From positions 1 to 17,471 of the forward strand of contig JAZDIN010000040.1 of NCBI GenBank assembly GCA_043804895.1: a stretch of 17,471 nt of DNA, written 5' to 3'. The notes under the pieces were generated by a model. The model was not told the DNA's origin. It did no database searches and was given only the letters and a program-made list of their open reading frames with translations. Position numbers and translations under genes: made by a program. The DNA is from Candidatus Altiarchaeota archaeon. Its GTDB lineage: Archaea; Altiarchaeota; Altiarchaeia; IMC4; SCGC-AAA252-I15. Below are positions 1 through 17,134 of the stretch, in pieces. Position 1 is the first letter of the stretch. The number at the start of each line of letters is the position of its first letter.

Positions 1-769
1 CCTCGGCAACCTCCTACTCCTTATCGGCTTGAGCATCTTCTTCGGAGGCCTAAGGTTTAAGGAGCAGAAGTTCAACAAGGACTCGGTCGGCGTCTCCTCA
101 ACGATGCTGATAATAGCCATCGTAGGCCTCGCAGTCCCGACAGTCTACTCCATGGTCGGGGGGGCCGACCCGGGCGATGAGAGGGTAATCAACGACGCAG
201 TCGCCGCAGTCCTCGCCCTGATATACGTGGCAGGCCTCATCTTCGCATTCGTCACACACAAGCATCTTTTCGACGCCAGCGACGAGGTGAAAGCGAAGGG
301 CGTAAGACACACAATCAGCATCAGGACAGCTTCTATCATCCTGCTTCTGGCGACTTTGGCCGTCGTCTTCGAGTCGGAGCTCTTGGTGGACGGGTTCAAA
401 CACGCTACAGTCAACTTAGGCTTGACGCAGACGTTCCTGGGAGTTGTGGTTGTTGCGATAATAACCAACATCGCAGAGAAAGCAAGCGCAGTCCAATTCG
501 CAATTGAAAACAAGCTTGATTTAGCCCTGGAAATCGGGCTGAGCAGCGCCACCCAAATTGCGCTGTTCGTAGTCCCCATACTCATATTCATAAGCCACAT
601 CTTCAACTACGGCTTCACACTCGTCTTCACCCCATTCGAAATAGTCTCAGTCTTCTTCGCAGTCATGATAGTCAACCACCTCTCATCAGACGGCCGATGC
701 AACTGGCTGGAAGGAGCCCAACTAATCTCAGTCTACCTCATAATAGTAATAGCATTCTACTTCGTGTAA
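1..769 (+). CDS. cax: Ca2+/H+ antiporter (CaCA/CAX family), 5'-truncated by the window edge
   Basis: Frame is open from position 2 (LGNLLLLIGLSIFFGG, alpha-1 repeat). Also the alpha-2 repeat NIAEKASAVQFA...GLSSATQIALFVVP, the typical end DGRCNWLEGAQLISVY, and many hydrophobic helices. Confidence 0.92.
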   Translation, partial: LGNLLLLIGLSIFFGGLRFKEQKFNKDSVGVSSTMLIIAIVGLAVPTVYSMVGGADPGDERVINDAVAAVLALIYVAGLIFAFVTHKHLFDASDEVKAKGVRHTISIRTASIILLLATLAVVFESELLVDGFKHATVNLGLTQTFLGVVVVAIITNIAEKASAVQFAIENKLDLALEIGLSSATQIALFVVPILIFISHIFNYGFTLVFTPFEIVSVFFAVMIVNHLSSDGRCNWLEGAQLISVYLIIVIAFYFV

Positions 770-786
770 AGTGTTGCGAGTTTCAT

Positions 787-807
787 GAACCTTCTGTGAA
801 AAGGTTC
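787..807. repeat. Short palindrome GAACCTT-N7-AAGGTTC between the convergent cax and tRNA genes (possible terminator or REP-like element)
   Basis: Perfect 7-bp inverted repeat, 787-793 / 801-807. Confidence 0.5.
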
Positions 808-891
808 GCCGGGGTCGAAATTCCGAAAGCCTGTGGGCTTTCTTATCTCGACCCGGTTGAGGATACACGAATGCTGTCGGGTTTATACGAT
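805..891 (-). repeat. tRNA-3'-end cassette (unit A, 87 bp): duplicated tRNA terminus, inverted copy and inner hairpin
   Basis: 805-822 matches 892-909 at 16/18. 845-857 ATCTCGACCCGGT is an inverted copy lacking one base. Inner hairpin GAAAGCC-TGTG-GGCTTTC at 825-842. Confidence 0.8.
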
Positions 892-893
892 TT

Positions 894-1000
894 CGCCGAG
901 GTCGAGATTTGAACTCGAGTTCCCTTTAGGGGAACACGCTGCCAGGGTTTTTTGTTTTCTTTCCAGGCGTGCGCTTTAGACCGGACTCAGCCACCTCGGC
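894..1000 (-). tRNA. tRNA-Ser(GGA) with a 20-nt intron at position 37/38; CCA not encoded
   Basis: Minus strand folds as: acceptor GCCGAGG/CCTCGGC, discriminator G, anticodon stem CACGC/GCGTG with loop CT-GGA-A|A, long variable arm TTCCC-CTAAA-GGGAA, T arm TCGAG-TTCAAAT-CTCGA. Confidence 0.95.
941..960 (-). other. tRNA intron AGAAAACAAAAAACCCTGGC
   Basis: Removing 941-960 restores a 7-nt anticodon loop. Intron CCTG pairs with C32-U33-G34-G35 with one U-U mismatch, giving a relaxed bulge-helix-bulge. Confidence 0.85.
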
Positions 1001-1002
1001 AT

Positions 1003-1088
1003 ATCGTATGTTTACATTTGCTTCTCGTATCACTACCGAGTGGCTGTCTGCGAGCCAATAGGGCGAAGCTTGACAGCCACCTCGGCAT
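1003..1088 (+). repeat. tRNA-5'-end cassette (unit B, 86 bp): duplicated tRNA terminus and inverted copy
   Basis: CAGCCACCTCGGCAT at 1074-1088 is identical to 988-1002. 1035-1048 ACCGAGTGGCTGTC pairs with 1072-1086, leaving one bulged base. Confidence 0.85.
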
Positions 1089-1144
1089 GAGCTTGTGTGA
1101 ATGCCGGGGCTAGCAACCCGTGAGGTTGCGCTTGCCTCGGCATT
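1089..1144 (+). repeat. Third acceptor-stem hairpin unit (unit C, about 55 bp)
   Basis: AATGCCGGGGC (1100-1110) pairs with GCCTCGGCATT (1134-1144). Inner stem GCAACC/GGTTGC. Third copy of CCTCGGCAT at 1135-1143. Confidence 0.8.
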
Positions 1145-1149
1145 GAGGC

Positions 1150-1178
1150 TTTTATATACGACGTCATAGTATTTATTT
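1150..1178. promoter_or_regulatory. Probable divergent archaeal TATA boxes: TTTTATATA (+, 1150-1158) for the 1196 gene and AAATAAATA (-, 1178-1170) for the tRNA side
   Basis: The only AT-rich TATA-like motifs between two divergent transcription units. Confidence 0.45.
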
Positions 1179-1195
1179 CACTTGTATTTTAGGGT

Positions 1196-1948
1196 ATGGA
1201 TTTTAAGGCGGTTTCATGGGGTTTAGGCGTCTTGTGTGTTGTCTTGGCAGCTTATGCTCTTTTGGGTGGGGCAACGAGGACTGTTTACGTCAACAACACA
1301 GTCTACCCTAAGGATAATCTGACAGTGTACTACCTTTACCCGCTACGCTGCATCGACTGCGACCTCAACAAGCAGGGACAGTGCGACTACTGCACCAGCT
1401 ATTACAGAAGCGAGATGATGGAGTTATTGAGCCAGGATTTGGGCGTTCCAGTTAGTTTCCACATCAGCGACGTTGTCAGCAAGCCTAACGCCCTTATAGT
1501 GTACAATGAAAAAATCACCTTAAGTGATGGACGCAGCAGATACAACATCGCCAACACCTTATGCAGGTTCGCGGGAGTAAAGAAGTCCTGCGAGCTGTTT
1601 GACGGTGAGTTGAAGAGGGTTAAGGAGTGCGTTAGCAGGTATGGGGTTGATGAGGATACACTCGTTTACCACACTAATAGCAAGGATTGCGCAGTCTGCT
1701 CCAAAACTGACGAGATTGTCGGCAAACTCATTGGGCTGGAGTATAATGACACCATGAAGTACACAGCCAAGATGTTCGACCACTCTGATCCGCAGGGGAA
1801 GAAGATTTTCAGCGATTGCCTCCAGTCTTTCGACAACACCGATTATGTTCCGCAGCTTCTGTGCACGGGTAGTGGCAGGGATTTGACCGGGGAGTTCACC
1901 TTGAAGCAGGCTACTGACTTCGCTGACCTGTGCATCGAGTCAGGCTAG
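1196..1948 (+). CDS. Membrane-anchored Cys-rich hypothetical protein, probably two thioredoxin-like modules
   Basis: N-terminal hydrophobic helix. Motifs YYLYPLRCIDC, CDYC and YHTNSKDCAVC, downstream KPNAL and VPQLLC (cis-Pro-like positions), and N-x-T sequons. Stop codon overlaps the leuS stop (CTAG, 1945-1948). Confidence 0.7.
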   Translation: MDFKAVSWGLGVLCVVLAAYALLGGATRTVYVNNTVYPKDNLTVYYLYPLRCIDCDLNKQGQCDYCTSYYRSEMMELLSQDLGVPVSFHISDVVSKPNALIVYNEKITLSDGRSRYNIANTLCRFAGVKKSCELFDGELKRVKECVSRYGVDEDTLVYHTNSKDCAVCSKTDEIVGKLIGLEYNDTMKYTAKMFDHSDPQGKKIFSDCLQSFDNTDYVPQLLCTGSGRDLTGEFTLKQATDFADLCIESG

Positions 1949-4788
1949 CATTCGACGTATATCCCAGGTTTCATGGGGAGGGCGTATCTGCTTTTCCCCT
2001 CAGGGTCGTGTGTCGGCTCCTCGTAGACTATTATCTGAGCGTTCAGTTCCTTCGCGAGGAATGTTTTGGCGTTTTGTAGGGTTGCAAACTCGGTCTTTCT
2101 GTCGAGTATAATCTTTGGGAGTTCTTCCTTCCGGGTCTGCATCATCTTAGCTATCTCTTTCCCCTTCGTCCGAAGCTCCGGGTCTGCCATGACGTCCTTC
2201 ATCTGCTTCCCCTCTTTAATCGCAGCATACACCTTGTGCTTCCATTCGGGAGTGAGGTACATGTGGATTTTCTTAGGCTGCTTTTTCAGGACTTGGAGGA
2301 TATTCTGGACGTCTTCGAGTATCAGCTTTATGTAGTCTTCCTTCGAGTCGACTACCTCGTCTATCTTCGAATCCTCGACCTTCGGGTACTCCTGTCTTGT
2401 GATTAGGTCCTTGTGTCCCATCTTCTCCCAGAGTTCCTCGCAGGTGAATGGCGTGAATGGTGCCATCATCTTAACCCATCTTTCAGCCAACTCTGACAGC
2501 ATCTTCGGGTTTTGTTTTTCTGCCCGCCTAAAGTACCAGCTTAGGTCTGTGAGCAGGTCGTATAACGCGGACTGGACTGCCTTTCGGGCGCTTGATGCGT
2601 CCAAGGCCTCCCGGGTCTTGTTTATGCGTTCTGTGAGTCTGTTCCTCATCCAACGGTCGGCGTCTTCCTCGATGGATGCTGTGCCTTTGAGTTCGATTAT
2701 TTTCTCCACAGTCTCCTGGAACTGTCTCAGCCTTTTTCGTGTGTTTTCGACGTGGTTTTCGCGCCAGTCCAGCGTTGTCGCAGGGTCTGCGCCGTATATC
2801 AGGTAGAGGCGGACCACGTCAGCGCCGTATTTCCCTATGCTCGTGTGTATCGGTATCACGTTTCCGATGCTTTTGCTCATCTTCCTGCCTTCTGCGATTA
2901 GCATCTCGTTTAGGCTTATCTTCTTCGGCCACATTTGTGAGGGGAATATGGCCGCATGGTGGAACATCATGAATGTGAGGTGGTTTGATATGTGGGCGAT
3001 TCCTGTCCTGCGTTCGTCCATCGGGTACCAGTATGCGAATTCCGCATGTATCTTTTCGAGTAGCTTCGCGTCGACACCGGTTTTGGAGCTGACGTCCTTC
3101 GGTTTGCCTGTTCCGATGAAGACGTAGTCGAAGAACTCCGGAGTCAGCTGTTTTTCAGTAAGCTTGTTCTCGGTTATGTGGTGCGCTATGGTGTAGTATG
3201 CCATGTAGATTGTGCTGTCTGAGAGTGATTCTATCATCCACCTCTCGTCGAACGGCAGCCTAGTCCCGAGGCCGCGGTTTCTCGTGCACGGCCATTCATG
3301 GAGCCATCCTATGGTGTGCTCGAATCCCCTTCGATACATTTCAGGCTCGATTGCTATCTTCAAGAGCAGTTCGCGTGTTATCTCCTTCCATCCTTCGCTG
3401 CCGTAGTTTAGGAACCACTGGTCTGAGAGGACTTTTATCGTGAGGCTGCCCCCGCACCGGCATTTAGGCTCCGTCACAGCCTTCCCGTCGGTGTCTTTGA
3501 TGTTATTCTCGTAGGCTGTGGTTATCTGGTTGAGTCCTTTAAGCCGTTCTATGACTCCGTCTTTGGCTTCGCTTACCCTCAGGCCTTCGAATTCCCCGCA
3601 TTTTTCGTTCATAACTCCGCGGTAGAATTCGTCCTTGTAGAGTTCCTGGGTGATTTTTTCCAGTTTTTCCATATCTTTTTGGGATTTTATCCCCTCACGT
3701 TCCACAAGGTCTCTCGCTGGGATGTCAGAATGACCATCTATCCGTATCAGAGATATCGGAGTCAGGTCTACACCGTATTTCTCCATCACCTCAAGGCCTG
3801 CCACGTAGTCGTATGGTGCGTGCGCTGGGACTGAGTTTACGACGCCGGTGGCTATGTCCACGTCCACGAACTCGGCCGCGAGGAGAGACACCTGCCTTTC
3901 GACTATCGGAACTGTGAGTTTTTTTCCGACGAATTCGCTTCCCTTGAATTTTGAGATAATCTTGACTTCGTGCTGTTGGTCTTGGTATTTCTGCACGAAC
4001 CTTTCTGCAACGTACCATGTCTCGCCGTCGACCTGTGCCTTCACGTACGTCTCCTGGGGGTGTATCCAGGTGTTGACTATTCCGAAAACCGTCTCAGGCC
4101 GGAGGGTGGCTGCGACGATGTAGCCGTCCTGGAACTTCATCTTTATGAGGTAGAATTCGCTCATCCCAATCTCGTACTCGTCCCCGGATTTTATGTCGTC
4201 CGTTGTTACTGGGTTGCTGCAGCTGGGGCAGAAGTAGACTGGGTGCTTACCTTTCATGATGTACTCCTTCTCCTTCAGCTTCAGGTACTGCCAGCTTACG
4301 AAGGCATTGTAGGGTTTGTCGCCTGTTGTGAAGAACCTCCGCCAGTCTATTGAGTAGCCCATCCCCTCGAAATCCTGCCTTATAGCGTTCGCATAGAAGC
4401 CGGCCACATTCGCTGGCTCCTTGAACCCTGACACAATCTCGTCTACCCTCTTAGGGTCTGACTCGTAGAAGGAGACGTACTCCCTGTTGCCTTGCAAGGC
4501 CTTAACGTCACCCTGCTCGATTTTCCTAGAGATTGCAAGGATTGGCGTCCCGGTTATGTGGGAGGCCATCGGGAAGAGCACGTTGTACCCGACCATCCTC
4601 TTATACCTCGCAGTCACGTCGCCGAGGGTGTAGCTTCTAGCATGGCCGACGTGCAAGGCCCCGGAGGCGTACGGGTACGGCACAGTAAGGAAGTACTTCG
4701 GTTTCTTCAAGTCAGGGTCACTCTCGAAAACACCCTCACCCCTCCACCTTTTAAGCCATTTAGCCTCAATAGACTCGGATTCGGCCAT
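1945..4788 (-). CDS. leuS: Leucyl-tRNA synthetase, archaeal/eukaryotic type (947 aa from ATG 4788)
   Basis: PYPYASGALHVGH (HIGH), ATLRPET and GVVNSVPAHAPYD (CP1 editing domain), IESLSDSTIYMAYYT, KMSKS, C-terminal ALPMKPGIYVE. Start placed at MAESES because TTTTTAATAT (4820-4811) lies about 25-30 nt upstream. Confidence 0.97.
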   Translation of the reverse strand: MAESESIEAKWLKRWRGEGVFESDPDLKKPKYFLTVPYPYASGALHVGHARSYTLGDVTARYKRMVGYNVLFPMASHITGTPILAISRKIEQGDVKALQGNREYVSFYESDPKRVDEIVSGFKEPANVAGFYANAIRQDFEGMGYSIDWRRFFTTGDKPYNAFVSWQYLKLKEKEYIMKGKHPVYFCPSCSNPVTTDDIKSGDEYEIGMSEFYLIKMKFQDGYIVAATLRPETVFGIVNTWIHPQETYVKAQVDGETWYVAERFVQKYQDQQHEVKIISKFKGSEFVGKKLTVPIVERQVSLLAAEFVDVDIATGVVNSVPAHAPYDYVAGLEVMEKYGVDLTPISLIRIDGHSDIPARDLVEREGIKSQKDMEKLEKITQELYKDEFYRGVMNEKCGEFEGLRVSEAKDGVIERLKGLNQITTAYENNIKDTDGKAVTEPKCRCGGSLTIKVLSDQWFLNYGSEGWKEITRELLLKIAIEPEMYRRGFEHTIGWLHEWPCTRNRGLGTRLPFDERWMIESLSDSTIYMAYYTIAHHITENKLTEKQLTPEFFDYVFIGTGKPKDVSSKTGVDAKLLEKIHAEFAYWYPMDERRTGIAHISNHLTFMMFHHAAIFPSQMWPKKISLNEMLIAEGRKMSKSIGNVIPIHTSIGKYGADVVRLYLIYGADPATTLDWRENHVENTRKRLRQFQETVEKIIELKGTASIEEDADRWMRNRLTERINKTREALDASSARKAVQSALYDLLTDLSWYFRRAEKQNPKMLSELAERWVKMMAPFTPFTCEELWEKMGHKDLITRQEYPKVEDSKIDEVVDSKEDYIKLILEDVQNILQVLKKQPKKIHMYLTPEWKHKVYAAIKEGKQMKDVMADPELRTKGKEIAKMMQTRKEELPKIILDRKTEFATLQNAKTFLAKELNAQIIVYEEPTHDPEGKSRYALPMKPGIYVEC

Positions 4789-4840
4789 GATAGGAGTGAT
4801 ATAGTATTCAATATTAAAAATAGCCTTAGGGGTAATGCCG

Positions 4841-5446
4841 TCATTGAGGGGCAATTAGCTTACTGTAGTAGTCTTTTGCGTATTCTGTTATGAGTTGTTT
4901 GGCTGATGCTTCTTTCAGCTCTTCCATGTCCTTGTAACCATAATTTTTTGGGTCTACGCCCAGGGGGGGATTCTCTAGGAACGCTAGGCGGTCACCATCA
5001 TAGACTGCGACAGCCTCGGGATGCTCACCCGGTTTCCCGTCAACATTGTGGTTGAGGATGCTGAACTTGACTAAATCTACCACGTCATCCCTGACATTAA
5101 GGCCTTTCAGTATTTCCTCAGCCTCGGCAGAGCAGAACTTCTCATGTTGGGGTATTGTACCTTCCTCATGGCATTTCCCGTAGCTTATGTCATGTAGTAG
5201 TGCTCCGACCTCAACAACATGTTTCTGCCTAACTGAGAGACCCATAGAATCAGCCACCTGTAGGCTGCGGTCCCTGGCGAGTAGGGTATGGGCTAGGAGA
5301 ATGGGATTGTCCGCTAGTCTTTCCTTGACTATATTCTCAACTTCTTTAACGAGCTCCGGAGTTAGACTCCGCTGGTTGAATAGGGGGAGTTTCTTGAATT
5401 CTGGATCCTCTTTGTTGGCCAGGTCCAACTGTTTCATGTAGCCCAT
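4841..5446 (-). CDS. HD-domain metal-dependent phosphohydrolase
   Basis: H...HD...H...D pattern: LAHTL, ALLHDISY, PQHE, LNHN, YDGDRL. Confidence 0.8.
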   Translation of the reverse strand: MGYMKQLDLANKEDPEFKKLPLFNQRSLTPELVKEVENIVKERLADNPILLAHTLLARDRSLQVADSMGLSVRQKHVVEVGALLHDISYGKCHEEGTIPQHEKFCSAEAEEILKGLNVRDDVVDLVKFSILNHNVDGKPGEHPEAVAVYDGDRLAFLENPPLGVDPKNYGYKDMEELKEASAKQLITEYAKDYYSKLIAPQ

Positions 5447-5501
5447 ATTAGAGATTGGGAATGAGACACATAAATACAGAGAGTAATAATACGTTACCAG
5501 T

Positions 5502-6224
5502 ATGGAGTTTGTCGTCGACGTTGAGGGATTGGTGAAATATTATGGAAGTGTCAAGGCCGTTGACGGCGTCACATTGAAGGTTAGACCGGGGTGTATTTTC
5601 GGATTGATTGGGCCGAACGGCGCTGGTAAGACGACGATTATCAGGTCGTTGACGGGGCAGCTTAAGCCGACAGCAGGGAAGGTTTCCGTGTTGGGTGTTG
5701 ACGTCCTCGCTGACCCGGTTGGCGTTCGCAAGGTGGTGGGGATAATACCTGAGCAGGAGGCGCCTGCAAGCTTCCTCACAGCTGAGGAGTACCTCTCATT
5801 CGTGTGCTCTATCAGAATGGTAGCCGACGTTGAGAGGCGCCTGGACTTCTGGTTCAATCTCTTGGACTTCCACGGGCAGAGGAACATGCTTTGTAAGGAT
5901 TTGTCGCGCGGCACGAGGCAGAAGCTGATGCTCGTTCAGGCGTTCATACACGAGCCGAAGCTCGTGTTCATAGACGAGCCGCTCGTGAACCTGGACCCGT
6001 TAGTCCAAAAGAGCGTGAAAGACTTCTTACGAGATTATGCGAGGAAAGGCAACACGATATTCATGTGCAGCCACCTTCTTGAAATCGTCGAAGAAGTCTG
6101 CAACGACATAGCGATACTCGGGGCAGGCAAGATAAAGGCTGAGGGGCAGCTGAAGGAGCTCTTACGTGGCGGCAGACACCTTGAGGGACTGTTCCTAGAG
6201 CTTGTTGGTGGCAGACATGCTTGA
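5502..6224 (+). CDS. ABC transporter ATP-binding protein (exporter type)
   Basis: Walker A GPNGAGKT, signature LSRGTRQK, Walker B VFIDEP, H-loop CSH. Confidence 0.95.
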   Translation: MEFVVDVEGLVKYYGSVKAVDGVTLKVRPGCIFGLIGPNGAGKTTIIRSLTGQLKPTAGKVSVLGVDVLADPVGVRKVVGIIPEQEAPASFLTAEEYLSFVCSIRMVADVERRLDFWFNLLDFHGQRNMLCKDLSRGTRQKLMLVQAFIHEPKLVFIDEPLVNLDPLVQKSVKDFLRDYARKGNTIFMCSHLLEIVEEVCNDIAILGAGKIKAEGQLKELLRGGRHLEGLFLELVGGRHA

Positions 6225-7668
6225 GACCCTTAAGGCGATGATGAAGGAGGAGTGGAGGATACACTCCCTCATGTTCGGTAACAGGAGCTTCAGTTTCTTC
6301 CCGTTTATGCTCGTCATCCTAGCCTTCATTGGGTCCATGATGCTGCCACTGTATGCCCATATACTGTCGAGGGAAGAGATGGCAGCCATAATCCACTTCA
6401 CCTACCTCTTCTTCGGCCTGTCCGTCGGCAGCTTCGGCCTCATGGGCCAGGAGGCCTTGAACCGCCGCCTCGGGGATTTGAGTCTCGTAGCATATATCAG
6501 TCGCATACTTCCTGTTTCTGAGAGGAGGCTTTTCGCGAACTTCATAGCCAAGGACACCATCTTCTACATCATGTTCCTTGTCGCCCCATTTGTCGCAGGT
6601 TATGTCCCGGCGAGGATGATACTGGGACTATCATTATCAAACATCCCCCTCATCGCAGTAACTCTCACCCTAACGTTCCTCCTCGGGCTTACAGTAAGCT
6701 TCGCCTTGTCAACAGCCTACGCGCACTTTGGCAAACCGCTGCTCGTAGTGGTCGGACTTGCAGTCTTCTGGTATTCTGTCTGGAATCCGACGTGGTTGAC
6801 GTTTGAAGGGGTAATGTCGATGACTCCGACACTCCAGTATTACCTACACCCGACTGCATCTAATCTAGTATTGTCCATGGCGTTGGTTTTCCTGCCATCG
6901 GCCCTGTCTGTGGCGTACCTTAAGGTGGACTACCGGCTTTCTGTGAAGAGGTTCCACAACGAGTATGGTAGGCTAGTGGATAGGCTGGGTCTTGGGATTT
7001 ATTCGCCGTTCCTGGCGAAAGACTTGCTTGACCTGAACCGCAGCGAAGGCGGACTTGCGAAGGTTGCGGTAAGCTATGTGTTCCCGCTGGCTGCCGTCGC
7101 CCTTGTAGTATCCTTCTTCGCCAACCTCCTGCCAATCCAAGGATACCATTCCATACTCATAATGGCTTTGATGACAGGCCTCGTCTCCACCAGCCTCTAC
7201 AACTGGCTTGCGGAGTACGATTTCCCCGAGCTCTACGAATTCCTGCCGATTACGACGCCGTATATAATAAAGTCGAAGCTTGTGATCTATGCGTTCTTCA
7301 CAGCAGTCATGTCAACTGTTGTTCTAATCCTGGCTTACCTCTACCTTCTTCCGCCGCCAGTATTCCTCCCCTTGAGTTTCCTGCTCACAGCATCCGTCGC
7401 AGCCTACACGACCGCTGTGACAGTGTACCTCGCAGGCCTGAGGCCGAACGTGATGCTCTACTCAGGAAAGTTATTCTTCTACTATCTCATTGCATTAATG
7501 CCGCTTCTCCTTATACCCGCAGTAGCGTTTATGACAGGATACCCTAGTATGACCACGAGCATAGGACTCGTGTTGGTCTTAGGGGCTTTCATGCTGCCCG
7601 CAGCAGACAGGCTCCTAAGAAAAAGTTACGTGAAGTGGAAGCACCCGATAAGCTATATCACAGGCTGA
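6217..7668 (+). CDS. ABC exporter permease (polytopic membrane protein, about 483 aa)
   Basis: Many hydrophobic helices in two blocks. ATG 6217 overlaps the end of the ATPase gene by 8 nt. MMKEEWR and LAKDLLDL resemble the starts of ABC-2 permease halves. Confidence 0.75.
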   Translation: MLETLKAMMKEEWRIHSLMFGNRSFSFFPFMLVILAFIGSMMLPLYAHILSREEMAAIIHFTYLFFGLSVGSFGLMGQEALNRRLGDLSLVAYISRILPVSERRLFANFIAKDTIFYIMFLVAPFVAGYVPARMILGLSLSNIPLIAVTLTLTFLLGLTVSFALSTAYAHFGKPLLVVVGLAVFWYSVWNPTWLTFEGVMSMTPTLQYYLHPTASNLVLSMALVFLPSALSVAYLKVDYRLSVKRFHNEYGRLVDRLGLGIYSPFLAKDLLDLNRSEGGLAKVAVSYVFPLAAVALVVSFFANLLPIQGYHSILIMALMTGLVSTSLYNWLAEYDFPELYEFLPITTPYIIKSKLVIYAFFTAVMSTVVLILAYLYLLPPPVFLPLSFLLTASVAAYTTAVTVYLAGLRPNVMLYSGKLFFYYLIALMPLLLIPAVAFMTGYPSMTTSIGLVLVLGAFMLPAADRLLRKSYVKWKHPISYITG

Positions 7669-8803
7669 GCTTTCCCATCCGCTCCAACGCAGTCCTGATC
7701 TTCTCCCTTGAGACCGAGTAACTGCACCGCACATACCCTTCGCCGCTGTCACCGAACGTGCTCCCAGGAACGACGACAACCTTACACTCGTTGAGGACCC
7801 GCCCGCAGAACTCCTCACTCGTGAGGCCGGTCTCCTTGATGTTGGCGAACGCGTAGAACGCACCCCTTGGCATAATGCACGAGACCTTGTCCAAACCGTT
7901 GAGGCCTTCCACGAGGAGCCTCCTCCGTTTGTCGTACTCATCGACCATCTTTTTCACATCGCTTGAGCACTCGTCGAACGCCAAAGCAGCGTACTGTGAC
8001 ACGGTGGGGGCGTTAAGCATCGCGTACTGGTGCACCTTCATCATCGCCTCGATTATCTCATCTGAGGCGGCAGAATATCCAAGGCGCCATCCCGTGAACG
8101 CATATCCTTTGCTGAAGCCGTTGATAGTGATTGTCCGATCCTCCATGCCGTTGAACGAGCCTATACTGTAGTGCTTGAGGCCATCGTAGACGAGGTACTC
8201 GTAGAGTTCGTCTGAGATGACTGTCAAATCGTGTTCGACCGCTATGTCCGCTATCTCCTCCAGGTCGCTCTTCCTCAGGACGCTCCCGGTCGGGTTGTTG
8301 GGTGAGGCGACGATTATCATCTTCGTCTTAGGTGTTACAGCCTTCTGAATCTCGTCCACGGATACCCGGAACTCGTCCTCCTCGTGCATCGCAACAGGTA
8401 CTGGAGTGCAGTGTGCAAACCACACGCACGGCTTGTATGCGACATAACTGGGCTCAGGCACGATGACCTCGTCGCCTGGGTCTAGCATGGCGCGGAACGC
8501 CAAATCCAACGACTCGCTCGTCCCGGTCGTGACTAGGATCTGCTTTTCTGGGTCAGCGTCAATATCGTTCTCCGTTTTCAGCTTTTTCGATATCTTCTGC
8601 CTCAAATCGATGAGGCCGTAGTTGGAGGTGTAGTTCTTCCTATCCGCCCTAATCGAGCTGATAGCGGCCTCCTTCATCGGCTGGGGCGTCGGGAAGTCCG
8701 GCTCACCCACACCAAGGCTCACCGCACCCTCTATCTTCGACGCCAAATCGAAGAACTTCCTAATACCAGAGAACGGCACCGCATTAACGCGCTTAGCAAC
8801 CAT
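7658..8803 (-). CDS. PLP-dependent aminotransferase class I/II (aspartate/aromatic type)
   Basis: SLGVGEPDF, SPNNPTG, ISDELYE, GFSKGYAFTGWRLG (PLP lysine), PRGAFY, GEGYVRCSY. Start placed at MVAKRV. Confidence 0.93.
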   Translation of the reverse strand: MVAKRVNAVPFSGIRKFFDLASKIEGAVSLGVGEPDFPTPQPMKEAAISSIRADRKNYTSNYGLIDLRQKISKKLKTENDIDADPEKQILVTTGTSESLDLAFRAMLDPGDEVIVPEPSYVAYKPCVWFAHCTPVPVAMHEEDEFRVSVDEIQKAVTPKTKMIIVASPNNPTGSVLRKSDLEEIADIAVEHDLTVISDELYEYLVYDGLKHYSIGSFNGMEDRTITINGFSKGYAFTGWRLGYSAASDEIIEAMMKVHQYAMLNAPTVSQYAALAFDECSSDVKKMVDEYDKRRRLLVEGLNGLDKVSCIMPRGAFYAFANIKETGLTSEEFCGRVLNECKVVVVPGSTFGDSGEGYVRCSYSVSREKIRTALERMGKLSL

Positions 8804-8879
8804 TTTAGAAAGATTTCTTATAGATAGCATTTGACGAATAAAAATACAATATTTAAGCGAATGATGCATAGGATGATAT

Positions 8880-9437
8880 ATGACAATTGCTACCGCTACT
8901 AAAGGAGAGAAACCAACGAAAGAAGTTGAAGATATTATGCTGTTCCAAACGAAGAAACGTCTTCTGCCAGATTACGTTATTTCAGGACTAAGAGAAGCTG
9001 TCGTAGGCAATCCGAGTATAAAGCTGAGAGGGATTTTAAACGAGTTCGATAGTCTGGAGAGTAAGGGACTTGACTTAAGTCGATTCCCGAAAGAAGCTCA
9101 ACATCTTGTGATACTGGCCAGCAAACACATCTCTTCCGACCCAATACTAGAGAAAAAACCAGAAATCGCCAGAGACATCATGAGGGAGGCTTTGCCAGCA
9201 ACATTGAAAGCACTGGTTGAATCAGAGGCAGAAATAGACTTGGGGAATATCAAAACAAATTGGAGTACGCTCAGTAATCTAGCCAATCGTATAGAACCAA
9301 CCAAAGCCAGGGCCGTGCTCACCTTTGATTTACCAGCTAAACTGAGAGATGGGGGAGCCGACATAAACTTGAAGGCGATATGGGCTGACGCGGTTGCATC
9401 AAGGACTGAGGAAATGAGGAAAATCCAACACCAGTGA
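8880..9437 (+). CDS. Hypothetical helical protein with a weak internal repeat
   Basis: 185-aa ORF filling the gap between genes, with TATTTAAG (8850-8857) upstream. No family recognised. Confidence 0.65.
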   Translation: MTIATATKGEKPTKEVEDIMLFQTKKRLLPDYVISGLREAVVGNPSIKLRGILNEFDSLESKGLDLSRFPKEAQHLVILASKHISSDPILEKKPEIARDIMREALPATLKALVESEAEIDLGNIKTNWSTLSNLANRIEPTKARAVLTFDLPAKLRDGGADINLKAIWADAVASRTEEMRKIQHQ

Positions 9438-9474
9438 GGCATATTTAATCTCATCCTTCGGGTTCTATTACATT

Positions 9475-10755
9475 ATGGGAGTAACAACCGCCCCTGCTAA
9501 GACTAAAGAGGGAATACCATCAGCTCTGATGGAGGATGTGCAAAGTCTGGGAGCGTCTGTCGAGGTGAAGGAGGCCGTAGATAGGGAGATTAAGGCGTTC
9601 GCCAAGGATGTGAAAACGCGGCTGAAAGCAATTGAGAAGGAAGCATCCTCATTAGGTGATGAGTTAATGGGTGGAAATGTTGAGAAAGCTTGGGATTCGT
9701 TCGACCGGGTTACAAAAGCCTCTGATGGACTGACTGCGCTGATTGGAGAGCGGTTGGAACGTGCGCGCCGTAAGCCTGAAAGACAAAACAATGATGTTTT
9801 CTCCGTTAACTTAAGCACTGGAGTGGTCGTTTCAGGCAGCCAGTCCTCGAGTGAGCGCCTAGGATGGTCAACTGGAGTTGAAGTTGACGCGACATTCAAA
9901 AAGAAGTTGACTGATGGCGCTATGCACCTTATGGGCAGGCCGAGTGTTGACGTTCAGTTGGAGGAGGATAATCTCGTGCAGTTGTTGCGCGTTGACTTCC
10001 CAGAGGGAAAGCCAGTAGCTATGCTGGTTTTTGCAGAGCCTATGTCGGAATCTCAGAAAGCAGTGATACACGAGTTAGGTGATTTCGCACATGACCTAAA
10101 GAACCCGATGCAGGGCTTCAACACAGCCATGCCACGTGTGATGGAGGCCTTAAGCACCGGCGATACTACGACGGCCGGGGAGTGGCTTGCACATATATCA
10201 AAAACATCTGAGAGATTGAGCGGTATTGTGGAGGATAGGCTTGAATGTTTGGAGGGGGCGGAAAAGAAGAGGATGGTGTTTTCCGTTTCAAACACTGTAT
10301 ACGACGCAAGTCGGATGTATTCAAAGTCGTTGACGCAGTCTGGCATAGACTTCAGTAGTGAAGTTGATAGGGATTTGCTCGTCTACGGAAACAGAAGCGA
10401 CATCAGAACAGTCTTCGTTAACCTAATCGAGAACTCAATCCCGCCCTTGTTGAAGGTTAATGGGGAGCGGAGGATAAGCGTGACTTCTGAAAAAGTCAAG
10501 TTCAGAGACGCTGATGCAATGAAGATAACTTTCTCTGACAACGGAGAGGGTTCAGACGATGATACTGAACGCTGGTTTGAGAGGGGTTACACAACAAAAG
10601 GCAGGGGCGGGACAGGCATAGGGTTGGCTAAAAGCAAGATCATAATCGAGGAGGAGATGGGCGGCTCGATAACAGTTGTGAGTAAGAGGGGGAAAGGGAC
10701 CACCTTTACGATAATCGTGCCGTTGGCTGAATCGAGAATGCAGATGGTAGCTTAG
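9475..10755 (+). CDS. Soluble sensor histidine kinase (HisKA + HATPase_c)
   Basis: H-box FAHDLKNP, N-box FVNLIENS, G1 DNGEG, F-box FERGYTTK, G2 GTGIGL. No transmembrane segment. Confidence 0.9.
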   Translation: MGVTTAPAKTKEGIPSALMEDVQSLGASVEVKEAVDREIKAFAKDVKTRLKAIEKEASSLGDELMGGNVEKAWDSFDRVTKASDGLTALIGERLERARRKPERQNNDVFSVNLSTGVVVSGSQSSSERLGWSTGVEVDATFKKKLTDGAMHLMGRPSVDVQLEEDNLVQLLRVDFPEGKPVAMLVFAEPMSESQKAVIHELGDFAHDLKNPMQGFNTAMPRVMEALSTGDTTTAGEWLAHISKTSERLSGIVEDRLECLEGAEKKRMVFSVSNTVYDASRMYSKSLTQSGIDFSSEVDRDLLVYGNRSDIRTVFVNLIENSIPPLLKVNGERRISVTSEKVKFRDADAMKITFSDNGEGSDDDTERWFERGYTTKGRGGTGIGLAKSKIIIEEEMGGSITVVSKRGKGTTFTIIVPLAESRMQMVA

Positions 10756-11807
10756 AGCAGTTTCTTCTTTAATGCTAGTTCTGCGTTGAGTATGCTGGCG
10801 CCTGCTGCGCCTCTGACGGTGTTGTGGCTGAGGCATGTGAATTTCAGCTTCTTCTCGCACTTTTTCCTGATTCTGCCGACTGACACTGCCATTCCATTAC
10901 CTGCGTCGCGGTCAAGTCTTGGTTGAGGCCTGTCAGGCTCTTCCCGGACTATTATGACTGGGTCTGGGGCTGTGGGGAGCTTCAGCTTCTGGGGGAGGCC
11001 TTTAAACTTCCGGAATGTCTCAGCAACGTCATCGACTTCGAAGTCTACGCTGGTGCCGACGAACACGCACTTCATGTGGCCGTCCATGGACTGGACTCTG
11101 TTGCATGAGGCGAACACGTCGAAGTTTGCGAACTCGACCTTCCCGCCCTTCATTTTACCAAGGAATTTGAGTGTCTCCTCCTCCACCTTCTCCTCCTCCC
11201 CGCCGATGTAGGGTATAACATTATCGACTATGGCCATGGAGGGGACTCCTTCGTAGCCTGCGCCGCTGAGGGCCTGCATCGTCGCCACATTCACCCACTC
11301 TATTCCGAACTCGTCAAATATTGGTTTCAGGGGAAGGGCTAGGCCGATTGTGCTGCAGTTGCCGTTTGTGACTATGTAGCCGTCCCAGCCGCGATTTTTC
11401 TTCTGACTCTTGATTAGGTCGTATTGCTCTGGGTTGACTTCCGCTATGACTAGAGGCACGTCCTCATCCATCCGGTAGGTTTTGGTGTTGCTGAACACTG
11501 GCACATGTTTTGCGAATGCGCCCTCAACCTCCCTCGCAATCTCGGATGGGATTGAGGAGAAGACTAAGTCAAGGTCGAATTGGTCGATTACCTTCGCATC
11601 CATTGGCTGCACAGTCATCTTCGCGATTTCATAGGGTATGTCGCCGTGGAGGTACCACTTAGCAGCCTCCTTGTACGTCTTCCCAGCGCTACGCTCAGAT
11701 GCGGCGAGGCATCCTATCCGGAAGTAGGGGTGACCCTCAAGGCCTCTGATGAAACGTTGACCCACCATCCCAGTGGCGCCTAAAATCCCGACATTGAGTT
11801 TTCTCAT
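10752..11807 (-). CDS. asd: Aspartate-semialdehyde dehydrogenase, archaeal type
   Basis: GATGMVGQ, catalytic NGNCST, TMQALSGAG, CNRV...DGH, DRPQPRLDRD, HNTVRGAAGASILNAE. Confidence 0.96.
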   Translation of the reverse strand: MRKLNVGILGATGMVGQRFIRGLEGHPYFRIGCLAASERSAGKTYKEAAKWYLHGDIPYEIAKMTVQPMDAKVIDQFDLDLVFSSIPSEIAREVEGAFAKHVPVFSNTKTYRMDEDVPLVIAEVNPEQYDLIKSQKKNRGWDGYIVTNGNCSTIGLALPLKPIFDEFGIEWVNVATMQALSGAGYEGVPSMAIVDNVIPYIGGEEEKVEEETLKFLGKMKGGKVEFANFDVFASCNRVQSMDGHMKCVFVGTSVDFEVDDVAETFRKFKGLPQKLKLPTAPDPVIIVREEPDRPQPRLDRDAGNGMAVSVGRIRKKCEKKLKFTCLSHNTVRGAAGASILNAELALKKKLL

Positions 11808-11845
11808 ACGCCCATGATATAGGAGTGGTTGAATAAAAAAAGCAA

Positions 11846-12463
11846 CTAACGGAGTTTCCTTTTGAGTATCCCAAGGCCGTGGTTGAAGAGGAGTTTGGCC
11901 TTATGCGCACTTTTCACATTCAGTTTGCCTGACGTCAAGGCCGTTCTGAAGTCGCCTTCGAATTCGACCGCAACCGAACCCACCTCCCGGAGAGTGTGAG
12001 CGTCGCTTCCCCCGACCACGGATATGCCGGACTCCAAGCAGACTGCCACCGGGTCGCGGGTGTTGCTGAAGGTGTGGCCGTTCACAGCCTCCACAGCGTC
12101 GAACTTGAGTTTTAGTATGAGGTCGCCGACTCCCCCACGTCGCCTGTCGTACGGGTGAGCTGCCACGGCAAGGCCGCCCTGGGAGTGTATCAACTCGATA
12201 GTCTCTGCTGCTGGGAGGTCCCTTGGTATGAGCTTAGTAACGTATAAGGCGAGGATATGGCCTTCGTCTGAGGACACCTCAACGCCGGGTATCACTGTGA
12301 GCCTGTGGGAGGCGTACTCCAAGGCCTTGAGCGAACCGTCGATGATGTCATGGTCTGTGACTGCAATTCCGGACAGGCCAATAGCCTTCGCGTATACGAC
12401 CAGCTCCTCAGGGGTAGCCAGGCCGTCTGAGTAGGTGGTGTGGGTGTGGAGTTCGTATAACAT
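11846..12463 (-). CDS. PHP-domain metal-dependent phosphoesterase
   Basis: ELHTHTTYSDG, AVTDHD, PGVEVS...GH, AAHPY, GGSDAH. Start placed at MLYEL, with TTTTAAA about 25 nt upstream. Confidence 0.9.
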   Translation of the reverse strand: MLYELHTHTTYSDGLATPEELVVYAKAIGLSGIAVTDHDIIDGSLKALEYASHRLTVIPGVEVSSDEGHILALYVTKLIPRDLPAAETIELIHSQGGLAVAAHPYDRRRGGVGDLILKLKFDAVEAVNGHTFSNTRDPVAVCLESGISVVGGSDAHTLREVGSVAVEFEGDFRTALTSGKLNVKSAHKAKLLFNHGLGILKRKLR

Positions 12464-12549
12464 GATGAGGTAATTGTGTTTGGGTTTAAAATAATGGTGA
12501 GGGTGAGGTAACTGCTGCACTTATTAATGCCTTTTGAGATTAGTTAGGT

Positions 12550-13074
12550 ATGGACGTCTATTTTGACGATTTTTACGGAAAGTATTCGCTAAGGCAGCAG
12601 TATGTTGAGATGTTCGCGCTTGCCGCGCTAGGATTCCTTTTACCGTTCACCGTAGGCCATCCGCAGATTCTCGTCGGAGTTCTTGTTAACGCTTTCATCA
12701 TCAGGGCCGCGCTCACTCTGCCAGAACACAAGGCCTTGCTCGTGGTTTTCACCCCAGTGCTCGGCGCCTTGGCAAGAGGGTTGTTGTTCGGGCCGTTCAC
12801 ACTCTTCCTCGTGTACATGGTGCCGTTCATATGGGCAGGGAATTACATCCTGATGAAGGCCTTCAGAGTGAGAGGAAACTATTTCCTGCGCCTTGGCGTT
12901 GGGTCGGTTGCGAAAACAGGCCTCTTGTTTGGTAGCGCATATGCGTTGTATTCCACAGGATTACTGCCTGCGCTCATGCTGTCGGCGATGGGGGTGATGC
13001 AGCTGACTACTGCGATAGCTGGCGGGATACTGGCGTACGGGGAACTGAAGGCAGAGAGACATCTGATAGGTTAA
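12550..13074 (+). CDS. Integral membrane protein resembling an ECF-transporter S-component
   Basis: 174 aa with about 6 hydrophobic helices. Motifs QILVGVLVNA, MVPFIWAGN and MQLTTAIAGG resemble S-component-like proteins (recognised from memory, not searched). Confidence 0.6.
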   Translation: MDVYFDDFYGKYSLRQQYVEMFALAALGFLLPFTVGHPQILVGVLVNAFIIRAALTLPEHKALLVVFTPVLGALARGLLFGPFTLFLVYMVPFIWAGNYILMKAFRVRGNYFLRLGVGSVAKTGLLFGSAYALYSTGLLPALMLSAMGVMQLTTAIAGGILAYGELKAERHLIG

Positions 13075-13077
13075 GGC

Positions 13078-14799
13078 CTATTTGCAGTCTTTTATTGTGC
13101 ACCTGTTGGTGTAGCTTGTGTGTAGGAGTTGGTGGGCCTGTTCGCTTCCGAATTCGCCGAGGTATTCCTTGTAGAGTGCAAGCACATCAGGGTTCTGGTG
13201 GGATTTCCTCAGCTTCTTGCCAGCGTCCTCCTTGTTCAAGGCCTCCGCCCTCTTTGCGAGAATCTCCTTCCTGTGCGGCGTCGGCTGGCCTCCGCCTCCG
13301 ACGCATCCTCCGTAGCATGCCATGATTTCTATGAAATGGTAGGGGCTCTTACCGTCCTTGATTTGTTCCATAAGCTTCCTTGCCTCCCCGAGCGTGTGGA
13401 CTACGCAAATCTTGACTGTCTCGCCTGCAATGTTTAATTCAGCCTCTTTCATGGTCTCCATGCCGCGGATTGACGTGTACTCTATACTGCCGAGGTCTTC
13501 GCCTGTCATGATGTCAGCAACAGACCTGAGGGCAGCCTCCATCACCCCCCCTGAGCGGCCGAATATGTCGCCTGCGCCTGATGAGAGGCCCATTGGGGTG
13601 TCGAATTCTGATGGGGGGAGTTTCAGGAAGTCTATGCTGTACTGTTTTGTTATTTTTGCAAGTTCCACTGTTGTGAGGACATAGTCAGCGTCGCCGTGGA
13701 ATTCCGGGCGCTGCACCTCAAACTTCTTGGCAGTGCAAGGCATGACGTCCACGAGGACTATGTCCTTGGAGTCTTTGCCTATCTTCTTGGCATAGTACGT
13801 CTTCACAAGCGATGCGAGGATTGCCTGCGGGCTCCGGCATGACGACATGTGGTCGAGCTCGGGGTAGAAGAACTGCTCCGCGAACTTTATCCATGCCGGG
13901 CAGCAAGTCGTTATCATCGGCAGGTCGCGTTTCTCCTTGAACCTTTTGATGAACTCAGTGCCCTCCTCCACAATACATATGTCAGCCCCGAAGTTGGTGT
14001 CGAACACTTTGTGGAACCCGAGCTGGCGTAGGGCGGCGACCATCTGGCCTGTGACAGGAGAGCCGGGGGGGAGTCCGAAGCATTCTCCGAGCGTCGCCCG
14101 GATGGATGGCGCAGCTTGGGCTATCAGGAATTTGTCAGAGTTGAGAGCATCCAGGACTTCAGGTATGCTGCTCTTCTCGGTGAGCGTCCCTGTCGGGCAT
14201 GCGACCACGCACTGGCCACAGTTGATGCACGGGCTCTCGTTCATGTTCATTCCAAAGGACGGGGCAACCTTTGTGTCGAAGCCTCTCTTTTGGAGCCCTA
14301 TTGCGTATACAGTCTGCACATCATTGCAGACACGGGCGCATTGTTCGCAGAGTATGCATTTGTTGTTGTCCCTGACTATGGACGGGCTTGATGTGTCCTT
14401 CTCCTCATTCCTTAACCTGGGGGGGAATGGCGTGTCCTCTATCATGAAATCGTGGGCGTACTGCTGCAAACGGCAAGTTAGGTTGCGTGGGCATGTCGTA
14501 CAGTTTAGGTCGTGGTTGGAGAGTAGGAGCTCTAGGTTCATCCTGCGCGCCTCAAGGATCCTGGGCGTGTGGGTCTTCACCTTCATGCCGTCTTGGATTG
14601 GTGTGCAACAGGATGCGACGAGCCTCGGGCTGCCTTCCACTTCGACCACGCACATCCTGCAAGCGCCGATTATGTCAAGCCTGGTGTTCCAGCAGAAGTG
14701 GGGGATGTCTATGCCGTTCCTCCTCGCCACCTCTATAAGCATCTCATCCTCCCCAGCATCCACTTCCCGACCGTTCAGGTGTATCTTGACTTGTTTCAC
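13078..14799 (-). CDS. hydA: [FeFe]-hydrogenase catalytic subunit, group A (573 aa from GTG 14799)
   Basis: H-cluster motifs TTCCPAW, MPCTAKKFE, EIMACYGGCVGGGGQP. N-terminal [2Fe-2S] (HFC...GACRMC...C), His-ligated [4Fe-4S] (HDLNCTTCPRNLTC), two [4Fe-4S] (CILCEQCARVC, CINCGQCVVACP), fused small-subunit tail RKSHQNP...LLHTSY. GTG overlaps the hydB TGA. Confidence 0.96.
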   Translation of the reverse strand: MKQVKIHLNGREVDAGEDEMLIEVARRNGIDIPHFCWNTRLDIIGACRMCVVEVEGSPRLVASCCTPIQDGMKVKTHTPRILEARRMNLELLLSNHDLNCTTCPRNLTCRLQQYAHDFMIEDTPFPPRLRNEEKDTSSPSIVRDNNKCILCEQCARVCNDVQTVYAIGLQKRGFDTKVAPSFGMNMNESPCINCGQCVVACPTGTLTEKSSIPEVLDALNSDKFLIAQAAPSIRATLGECFGLPPGSPVTGQMVAALRQLGFHKVFDTNFGADICIVEEGTEFIKRFKEKRDLPMITTCCPAWIKFAEQFFYPELDHMSSCRSPQAILASLVKTYYAKKIGKDSKDIVLVDVMPCTAKKFEVQRPEFHGDADYVLTTVELAKITKQYSIDFLKLPPSEFDTPMGLSSGAGDIFGRSGGVMEAALRSVADIMTGEDLGSIEYTSIRGMETMKEAELNIAGETVKICVVHTLGEARKLMEQIKDGKSPYHFIEIMACYGGCVGGGGQPTPHRKEILAKRAEALNKEDAGKKLRKSHQNPDVLALYKEYLGEFGSEQAHQLLHTSYTNRCTIKDCK

Positions 14800-16846: not shown

Positions 16847-16869
16847 CCAGGTATAATGTATTTGTATAA

Positions 16870-16965
16870 ATAAATATCCACAGGCTAAAGCCTGTGGTAT
16901 TTATAAGAAAGCCATGCAACCCACATTCATCCACAATATTAATATTGTGGTATTCTGTGGCTTTC
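16870..16965 (-). mobile_element. Non-autonomous IS200/IS605-like palindromic mini-element, copy 1
   Basis: ATAAATAT-CCACAGGCT-AA-AGCCTGTGG-TATT hairpin. GAAAGCCA/TGGCTTTC inverted repeat enclosing ACATTCAT-CCACAATATTAATATTGTGG-TATTC. Confidence 0.6.
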
Positions 16966-16968
16966 GGT

Positions 16969-17123: not shown

Positions 17124-17134
17124 ATAAAAGGTAG

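Follow-up and report, generated by a model that had tools for sequence, protein, structure and literature searches.

Why should a tRNA gene be bracketed on both sides by short hairpin-bearing repeats, each of which resembles the tRNA end that it adjoins? The question is raised by the tRNA-Ser(GGA) gene of a Candidatus Altiarchaeota archaeon. The window, i.e., the stretch of DNA analyzed here, is the entire 17.5-kb contig C40 (17,471 nt; GCA_043804895.1, contig JAZDIN010000040.1, forward strand, positions 1–17,471) of an assembly that comprises 1.58 Mb in 71 contigs and is 88.7% complete. Below, G000 denotes the genome of the window, the other G numbers its relatives, C numbers contigs and L numbers fetched loci. 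We found that the architecture of these repeat units recurs at many tRNAs, with arms that follow each tRNA, and that the pairing on one of their strands is under selection. By analogy with folded recombination sites, we see an even chance that the units are gene-less minimal cassettes of a tRNA-end insertion system akin to the integron attC or the CTX phage attP.

The 3′ end of the tRNA-Ser gene (894–1000, minus strand) adjoins an 87-nt unit and its 5′ end a mirror-image 86-nt unit, beyond which lies a third, shorter unit (1089–1143). Read outward on the minus strand, the 3′ unit begins with an unstructured linker (858–893), which holds the family's conserved motifs in the unit alignments and in whose columns RNAalifold found no conserved helix, its conservation lying at the sequence level. 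There follow an inverted arm (845–857), recognizable from the sequence as the complement of the 3′ strand of the T stem and part of the 3′ strand of the acceptor stem, one base short; a loop (822–844), for which the folds show an inner hairpin of 7 bp together with an asymmetric internal loop that is conserved; and a direct arm (805–821), which repeats the tRNA 3′ end on the outer side, starting with the last T-loop bases and stopping two bases past the discriminator, with two differences from the tRNA. The underlying direct repeat, D1 (805–822 versus 892–909), is 89% identical over 18 nt at a spacing of 87, and the RNA fold, the DNA fold and the model alignment all pair 845–857 with 805–821. 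The 5′ unit displays the same order when read outward on the plus strand: a linker (1003–1034) homologous to that of the 3′ unit; an inverted arm (1035–1046) that is like the tRNA 5′ end except that A stands for the first G and one G is lacking, and that pairs with 1074–1088 in the folds; a loop (1047–1073) in which the folds place a short inner helix; and a direct arm (1074–1088) that exactly copies 988–1002, i.e., the complement of tRNA bases 1–13 and of two bases upstream (direct repeat D2, 15/15 identical, spacing 86).

The likeness of the two full units extends beyond this layout. They have in common a pair of linker motifs that a regular-expression scan located at five places in the 1.58 Mb genome, two of which are these tRNA ends, and positions 1–35 of our model R1 align to the 5′ linker; R1 was built from nine aligned 3′ units of four genomes, those of tRNA-Ser, two tRNA-Val and tRNA-Ile being alignable in G000. 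A covariance model derived from 3′ units only matches the 5′ unit on the plus strand over its full length (1002–1087; 18 bits, E 3.4e-5 in an 801-nt search), and hence the mirror-image, reverse-complement homology is real. Both full units fold as the expected hairpin as RNA (z −3.1 and −2.7) and also as DNA. The third unit, detected as an inverted repeat on the plus strand, consists of a 12-nt linker and a hairpin (arms 1100–1114 and 1130–1144; RNA fold z −3.86) with an outer stem that copies the acceptor stem only. Its match to R1 is non-significant (5.4 bits, E 0.21), and hairpins resembling it stand at the orthologous position in L003, L004, L006, L009 and L015. In DNA folds all three hairpins of the window are slightly stronger on the outward-reading strand, the values for the third being −16.6 on the plus strand versus −14.4 on the minus strand.

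A first-pass annotation of this DNA had described mirror-image 86–87 bp cassettes with homologous spacers at both ends of the tRNA-Ser gene, and the two direct repeats, the inverted copies, the shared linker motifs and the alignment of the 5′ linker by R1 bear this description out. It had also characterized the inverted copy as one base short and starting with A. This is accurate for both units of the window, where 845–857 and 1035–1046 each fall one base short of the perfect complement and each start with A where the tRNA has G, but it does not extend to the whole family, as exemplified by a tRNA-Val unit of G007 with an uninterrupted 12-bp stem. Its proposal that the acceptor-stem heptamer is the target is too narrow: the copied stretch runs from the last T-loop bases (on the 5′ side, it reaches the D stem) to 0–2 bases past the discriminator. 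The proposed use of either tRNA end is sustained by the mirror-orientation units at 5′ ends, which are evident from both the alignment and the model. The third unit of the window falls beyond the interval that the annotation had delimited (805–1088).

How widespread are such units, and do their arms change with the tRNA? At E ≤ 0.01, R1 recovered 57 places in 11 of the 21 genomes of the family, among them all five genomes of the window's genus, G000 included; at E ≤ 1e-4, matches were present in 9 of the 49 genomes of the order, and none of the 22 genomes of the largest sister family, f5, had units in the R1 search. This patchy distribution fits a selfish element. Within G000 itself, R1 finds four full units, an nhmmer profile of three units returned the same four that were already known and no others, and the weak R1 matches on contigs C6 and C35 look like chance. 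The units are uniform in size (82–91 nt) and adjoin tRNAs of at least six identities, including Ser, Val, Ile, Gly, Ala and Arg, with arms that match the adjoining tRNA in each case. Among the full-length rows of the search, 31 of 35 (30 of 34 places, one being listed twice) follow a copy that agrees with their own 3′ arm at 12 or more of 13 bases; 20 of the 35 lie directly behind a T loop, and the remainder lie behind another unit (mostly, in tandem arrays) or at a contig end. Examined from the side of the tRNAs, 9 of the 23 tRNA entries of G000 repeat a 12-mer of their own end, with no more than one mismatch, in the appropriate flank and no farther than 350 nt away, whereas we calculate that about 0.04 would be expected if base frequencies were equal; two of the 23 entries are probably one gene split at contig ends. 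The predictions that the gene-less unit would be repeated at other tRNAs and in other genomes, and that its arms would track the neighboring tRNA, have thus both come true.

Such a picture might also arise by chance, by local slippage or as an assembly artefact where a tRNA locus is rich in repeats. Indeed, the ends of contigs C33 (23591–23654) and C47 (21265–21411) of G000 share the same tRNA-Val and upstream sequence; the assembly probably broke at this repeated tRNA-Val-plus-unit locus, and repeats of this kind hence do trouble the assembler. However, the layout is repeated at the orthologous tRNA-Ser locus in independent assemblies and metagenome contigs (L002, L080, L081, L084), which effectively excludes an artefact, and the 57 places in 11 genomes, along with the shuffle and model statistics, further count against it. 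We accordingly leave this explanation next to no probability.

Other kinds of tRNA-derived repeats accompany the units. In G000, tRNA-Ile, tRNA-Lys and tRNA-Phe (C33:4792–4978, C11:53960–54131 and C2:23155–23258) have upstream of them a copy, exact or nearly so, of their first 13–17 bases, followed by a multi-hairpin insert of 100–190 nt; the Ile and Lys inserts are homologous to each other, and this type of unit is unlike that of the window. Downstream of tRNA-Ser, loci L009 (G013), L017 (G022) and L045 (G006) display larger tRNA 3′ fragments, starting from the T stem or the anticodon stem, that hold a structured insert of 60–100 nt inside the T loop; these may represent a stage between copies of tRNA fragments and the compact units. 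The more distant tRNA-end copies of G000 (on C11, at C4:5104, at C25:112738 and on C45) lack the hairpin.

If the units are inserted DNA, what do their junctions look like, and are there sites without them? At the 3′ side, the tRNA end is duplicated and the native trailer is displaced behind the outer copy: in the window, a T-run and a small hairpin (781–804, minus strand) come behind the outer copy, as they do directly behind the tRNA at the tRNA-Ser loci free of 3′ units (L007, L012, L015, L016, L045). The two tRNA-Val genes of G000 differ in anticodon, body, intron and flanks; their units are identical over 86 nt and cease to match where the outer copy ends. Of 19 fetched tRNA-Ser loci, 10 share the divergent neighbor of the window (a homologue of orf1196), which establishes their orthology, and at this orthologous locus there are 0 to 3 units per side. 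In G004, of the same genus (L010), units are on neither side; in G001 there is one on each side and an extra hairpin; G016 has two identical tandem 5′ units, G006 two 3′ units, and G005 and G015 5′ units only. Unit-free orthologous loci, which the first-pass annotation had proposed to look for, do exist, in L010 on both sides and, with regard to the 3′ unit, in L007 and L008. Metagenome contigs with the same neighbor gene have equally varied flanks; the search by alignment of the neighbor protein furnished eight such loci at 43–60% identity, none of them a close relative, and a single-protein query found none.

Perfect tandem copies are seen in L005, L012 and G001:C62. In the last of these (47273–47620), one tRNA-Val is followed by four tandem 87-nt units, namely two types in two identical copies each. 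When the nearest relative of the linker and loop was sought for 32 units, it was in no case a unit with the same arm from another genome; it was a same-arm unit of the same genome (tandem or paralogous) for 12, a different-arm unit of the same genome for 6 and a different-arm unit of a different genome for 14. The linker and loop do not track the tRNA. One unit of G001 is 97% identical to its neighbor over the linker, inverted arm and loop and is missing the outer copy, the break falling at the junction of loop and arm. Units are gained, lost and tandemly amplified between related genomes.

Is it the structure or merely the sequence of the units that is maintained? In an alignment of 42 hits (38 distinct), 86.7% of the cells are paired and 18 of the 19 pairs have changed on both sides; this alignment was fitted to the model, which favors pairing, and the outer helix covaries partly by virtue of the arm that is tied to the tRNA. 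None of 500 shuffles reached the observed values, and slid registers fall to 34–46% paired. The inner helix, which is independent of the tRNA-tied arm, has compensatory double changes at six of its seven pairs and a conserved set of tandem G·A pairs. A single bulged base is present in most units, though not all, and the position of the T loop in the copy holds 23–27 nt rather than 7 nt. On the unit's own strand, wobble pairs outnumber A·C mismatches by 50 to 8, which indicates that the hairpin is selected as a single strand of fixed polarity, be it RNA or single-stranded DNA.

The first of these two options leads to an interpretation in which the units are functional RNA flanks, i.e., leader and trailer minihelices that present the tRNA's own acceptor stem and T or D stem for precursor processing, folding or protection, in the manner of t-elements, and in which the presence or absence of units reflects lineage-specific tuning. 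The 3′ units sit between the tRNA and its T-run trailer, and a promoter-like A/T box at a normal distance from the outermost 5′ copy at several loci (L012 and L003, by eye) would place the 5′ units in the leader. In the window, such an A/T-rich box, a candidate archaeal promoter element identified by eye against what we take to be the archaeal TATA consensus, lies at 1151–1158 between the outermost 5′ unit and the divergent gene at 1196–1948, in a stretch conserved in L003 and L004. Moreover, both helices covary, the wobble bias of the 3′ units is on the tRNA-sense strand, the bases of the internal loop are conserved along with the tandem G·A pairs, and the genome encodes a full-length archaeal RNase P RNA (C58:9820–10111; 81.5 bits, just below the Rfam cut-off of 84). 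Set against this, orthologous tRNA-Ser genes do without units (L010) or have 1 to 3 of them, and the Val and Ile units form only four of the seven acceptor pairs, a poor mimicry of a minihelix. Oligo-T is an archaeal transcription terminator; if it terminates here, the runs of 5–6 T in the sense-strand loops of L070, L054, L064, L072 and L002 would stop transcription before the outer arm. That the 5′ units are reverse-complement homologues of the 3′ units is what inserted DNA would readily show but would be strange in an RNA made for a purpose, and the same hairpin is found at the ends of gene-bearing accessory units. On balance, we regard RNA flanks, the main rival of the cassette reading, as possible though rather unlikely.

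The gene-bearing units are best illustrated on contig C4 of G000, to which R1 had a weak match. There, behind a tRNA that adjoins the EF-1alpha and EF-2 genes, stand three units of 984, 738 and 1014 bp, each of which finishes with the tRNA 3′ end copied exactly; an inverted arm and a loop of the type seen in the 87-nt units precede two of the three copies. The cargo, in mixed gene orientation, comprises a pair of MazE-like and ParE-like proteins, an NYN-domain nuclease and frames of unassigned function, and was not found among the 20 relatives searched, which match the tRNA alone. This tRNA is called by ARAGORN only with a long intron and is missed by Rfam. The island spans C4:91350–94520 (about 3350–6520 of L087), and a GNAT gene and a PIN gene lie farther along. 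The second example is a 2.4-kb stretch with an AAA ATPase on contig C13 of G016, situated between two repeats that each consist of a tRNA-end-like piece and a unit. Thus, the same type of hairpin closes kilobase-sized units of accessory genes behind another tRNA, whereby the parallel that the first-pass annotation drew with folded recombination sites gains weight.

Repeats of this kind could also be passive scars, left when elements with integrases inserted into tRNA genes, deposited partial copies as attL and attR and later lost their interior, so that the hairpin would be no more than the sequence that flanked the att site of the element. The usual extent of att repeats at tRNA genes is from the T loop to the tRNA end, which is just the extent of the direct copy here. 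Further in keeping with scars, hairpin-free displaced tRNA 3′ fragments exist in G000, e.g., 1.8 kb behind tRNA-Met, and the cargo arrays, flanked as they are by partial tRNAs, look like integrations stacked on one another. The general principle of att repeats at tRNA genes is described in 10.1101/2020.12.28.424599. Nevertheless, a uniform size of 82–91 nt, a conserved linker and loop, compensatory changes and a strand bias are unlike the outcome of random deletion. Equally at odds with scars are the mirror-orientation units at 5′ ends, the perfect tandem copies, the 23–27 nt at the T-loop position of the copy in place of the 7 nt expected of a core site, and the failure to find an integrase in 7 of the 11 unit-bearing genomes. 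We therefore consider such an origin improbable.

How, then, might inserted cassettes acquire this form? In the mechanism that we propose, the end of a tRNA gene would be the docking site of a site-specific insertion system. Each unit consists of a linker of about 35 nt with its motifs, an inverted arm complementary to the terminal 12–13 bases, a loop with an inner helix and a direct copy of the tRNA end, and reads outward from the gene, on the tRNA strand at the 3′ end and on the opposite strand at the 5′ end. The hairpin, folded from a single strand, would imitate the double-stranded docking site and act as the recombination partner. Were a circle to be opened within its direct arm and inserted into the target, the resulting order would be target copy, cargo, inverted arm, loop and target copy, as with integron attC sites and the folded attP of CTX phage. 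The observed layout is what opening such a target-mimicking hairpin circle in its direct arm would produce, and it is on this account that we read the units, at even odds, as minimal cassettes. The fit of the arms to each tRNA might come about by imprecise excision that picks up target sequence, followed by correction within the hairpin, or by templating through some further enzyme. With considerably less confidence, we envisage an integron-like form of gene capture in which any tRNA end can dock; cassettes, ranging from the 35-nt linker to a few genes, would carry a templated, folded single-stranded site, and either an enzyme that belongs to none of the known recombinase and transposase families or a nucleic-acid enzyme of the host would join them and rewrite their arms on each new tRNA. 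This bolder version seems to us doubtful, if conceivable.

Which enzyme could be responsible? Domain searches remove the obvious candidates. The tyrosine recombinases (PF00589) occur in 4 of the 11 unit-bearing genomes versus 6 of the 10 unit-free ones, with no match in G000, G001, G002, G004, G005 and G007, and Y1 HUH transposases (PF01797) in none of the 11 unit-bearing genomes versus 4 of the 10 others; accordingly, the co-occurrence with tyrosine recombinases or HUH/TnpA genes that had been suggested for the element did not materialize. Among the five unit-rich genomes, TnpB-type proteins (PF07282), serine recombinases (PF00239) and DDE integrases (PF00665) were found in none, IS110-type proteins (PF01548) in one and LAGLIDADG proteins (PF14528) in three. 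GIY-YIG domains (PF01541), the other suggested partner, are indeed present in 5/5 genomes, but in the window's genus they reside within long frames of 538–696 residues, which we presume to be repair proteins. As the genomes are 57–93% complete and viruses and plasmids are unbinned, these searches leave the absence of an enzyme unproven.

Several observations weigh against the reading of the units as insertion cassettes. No known enzyme family, among the family domains searched, tracks the units. Their arms are tailored to each tRNA, and we know of no transposase or integrase that does so, the routes offered above being speculation. The 5′-side hairpins have no clear strand preference: folding favored the antisense strand for 10 of them, the sense strand for 6 and neither for 1, with 14 wobble pairs on the sense versus 9 on the antisense strand. 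Neither a circle junction, nor an empty allele within one population, nor a single-stranded form came to light, the one DNA run for this contig having no reads over 769–1301. The gene-bearing examples examined number two, and the hairpin is absent at one of the three boundaries on C4. Finally, the conserved structure, the tandem G·A pairs of the inner helix and the strand bias are expected equally of a functional RNA, and the 3′ units are probably co-transcribed with the tRNA, given their location between it and its T-run.

The tRNA-Ser gene itself is intact: Rfam RF00005 scores it at 46 bits (cut-off 29) with model positions 1–71 complete and about 22 extra bases in the anticodon loop, and ARAGORN, which found no tRNA in the window at default settings, calls tRNA-Ser(gga) with a 20-nt intron once its intron option is set. 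The anticodon-loop intron is thus 20–22 nt long (about 941–960). A reading of the flanks as parts of an intron or a split tRNA was rejected, as the tRNA is complete and no bulge-helix-bulge (two 3-base bulges, 4 bp apart) was apparent by eye in the folds. Also dropped by eye were C/D-box, K-turn and promoter readings of the linker motifs, the box sequences as we know them being absent, and a long processing stem between leader and trailer, where the linkers are complementary over 7 and 5 bases only and the local hairpins are far stronger. Rfam with permissive thresholds over 700–1250 gave the tRNA and three chance-level matches, nothing more. The flanking genes are ordinary, comprising a Na/Ca exchanger gene ending at 769, the divergent gene of unassigned function and a leucyl-tRNA synthetase gene, and no recombinase is found among the genes of the window.

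The trailer of tRNA-Ser, delimited by comparison with unit-free tRNA-Ser loci, is an instance of one conserved behind many tRNAs across the order (781–804; L007, L008, L012, L014, L015, L016, L045), a T-rich/A-rich hairpin followed by a short motif, that may serve as a bidirectional terminator. Rfam detects just 17 tRNAs in G000, several of them with introns of 80–250 nt or introns outside the anticodon loop, and a tRNA-Leu has an insert in its D loop (C25:114097–114219); such long or displaced introns imply that many tRNAs are missed by standard tools.

Should the units be inserted DNA, they would disclose how accessory genes are gained and lost at tRNA genes in genomes devoid of the usual integrases and transposases, and would point to a joining enzyme with a target-copying recognition site, which would be of relevance to programmable insertion. 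Should they be RNA flanks, they would add to archaeal tRNA maturation a new type of leader and trailer element that is matched to its own tRNA. Under either reading, they account for some of the clutter of tRNA fragments and some of the breaks between contigs that these assemblies display, and need to be taken into account by finders of tRNAs and of genomic islands.

Does any known system look like this? The literature on archaeal split and intron-containing tRNAs, Altiarchaeota tRNA, tRNA-linked hairpin elements, attC-like sites, tycheposons and archaeal integrons, covered largely at the level of abstracts, yielded no account of such units, and the family of hairpin units is apparently undescribed. 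Split and permuted tRNAs differ in that the tRNA-Ser gene is complete (model 1–71), without an extra piece. The t-elements are alike in having a hairpin that presents an acceptor-like stem beside the transcript of the gene; compared with their minihelix, a mimic of acceptor and T arm that RNase P and RNase Z cut, the stem of the unit is the T stem with 4–6 acceptor pairs and a replaced T loop. Unlike the units, however, they are not copies of the adjoining tRNA, have no combined direct and inverted duplication and bound no gene cassettes.

Among small mobile repeats, MITEs have inverted repeats at their two termini and duplicate a short, fixed length of target, whereas here the inverted arm is internal and pairs with the target copy rather than with the other end of the element, and the duplication measures 13–18 bases. 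REP/BIME, PATE and other IS200/IS605-derived hairpins are moved by Y1 HUH enzymes and insert beside a 4–5-base target without duplicating it. Like the units, they are hairpin repeats that are small, devoid of genes and strand-specific and that commonly lie in tandem, and they act in trans, as the units would; unlike them, they have hairpins that do not copy the flank, while here 13–18 bases of the tRNA end are duplicated and none of the 11 unit-bearing genomes yielded a Y1 transposase.

The tycheposon islands of Prochlorococcus, in which integrases leave partial tRNA repeats at tRNA genes (10.1101/2020.12.28.424599), offer a further parallel. There too, direct copies of tRNA 3′ ends bound stacked accessory units beside a conserved tRNA gene, and here the direct copy has the reach of a tRNA att repeat, from the end of the T loop to 0–2 bases past the discriminator. 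The present units are set apart by the absence of an integrase from them, by their content (55–88 nt in the window; MazE- and ParE-like proteins, an NYN nuclease and unassigned frames on C4), by the inverted copy and conserved loop beside each direct copy, by the gene-less 87-nt form and by the use of 5′ ends.

The integron presents another analogy. As with attC, the unit terminates in a hairpin of imperfect pairing, mostly with one base bulged out, its pairing is conserved rather than its sequence, and there is selection on one strand; as in integrons, units are arrayed behind one fixed docking site, and the cargo ranges from nothing to one or two genes, a toxin–antitoxin pair included. Arrays in which every open reading frame precedes a site, as in integrons, may be represented by the one C4 array of three gene units, with mixed orientation and the hairpin at two of the three ends, and by the one 2.4-kb unit of G016. 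The attC sites have conserved 7-base core sites at the outer ends of both arms; here, by contrast, no common core is discernible by eye at the arm ends, the arms differ wholly between tRNAs, and they copy 12–18 bases of their own docking site in place of a shared 7-base core. What serves as the docking site is a tRNA gene terminus, units in mirror orientation adjoin the opposite terminus as well, and no integrase of the integron type was found (no PF00589 match in the six genomes named above). Clusters of attC sites lacking an integrase (CALINs) have been reported in Archaea, and the preprint in question makes no mention of tRNA (10.1101/2022.02.06.479319).

There is also a mechanistic likeness to the CTX phage. 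In that and other Xer-dependent elements, a folded single-stranded attP mimics dif and is recombined by XerC/D or XerA. The target of the present units is a tRNA end and not dif, they measure from 87 nt to about 1 kb and are without phage genes, and no Xer-type gene (PF00589) was found in G000 or G001. What the two share is the central device of a hairpin in the element that mimics the double-stranded target, and the order of parts predicted for the product of such a reaction is the order seen at the tRNA genes described here.

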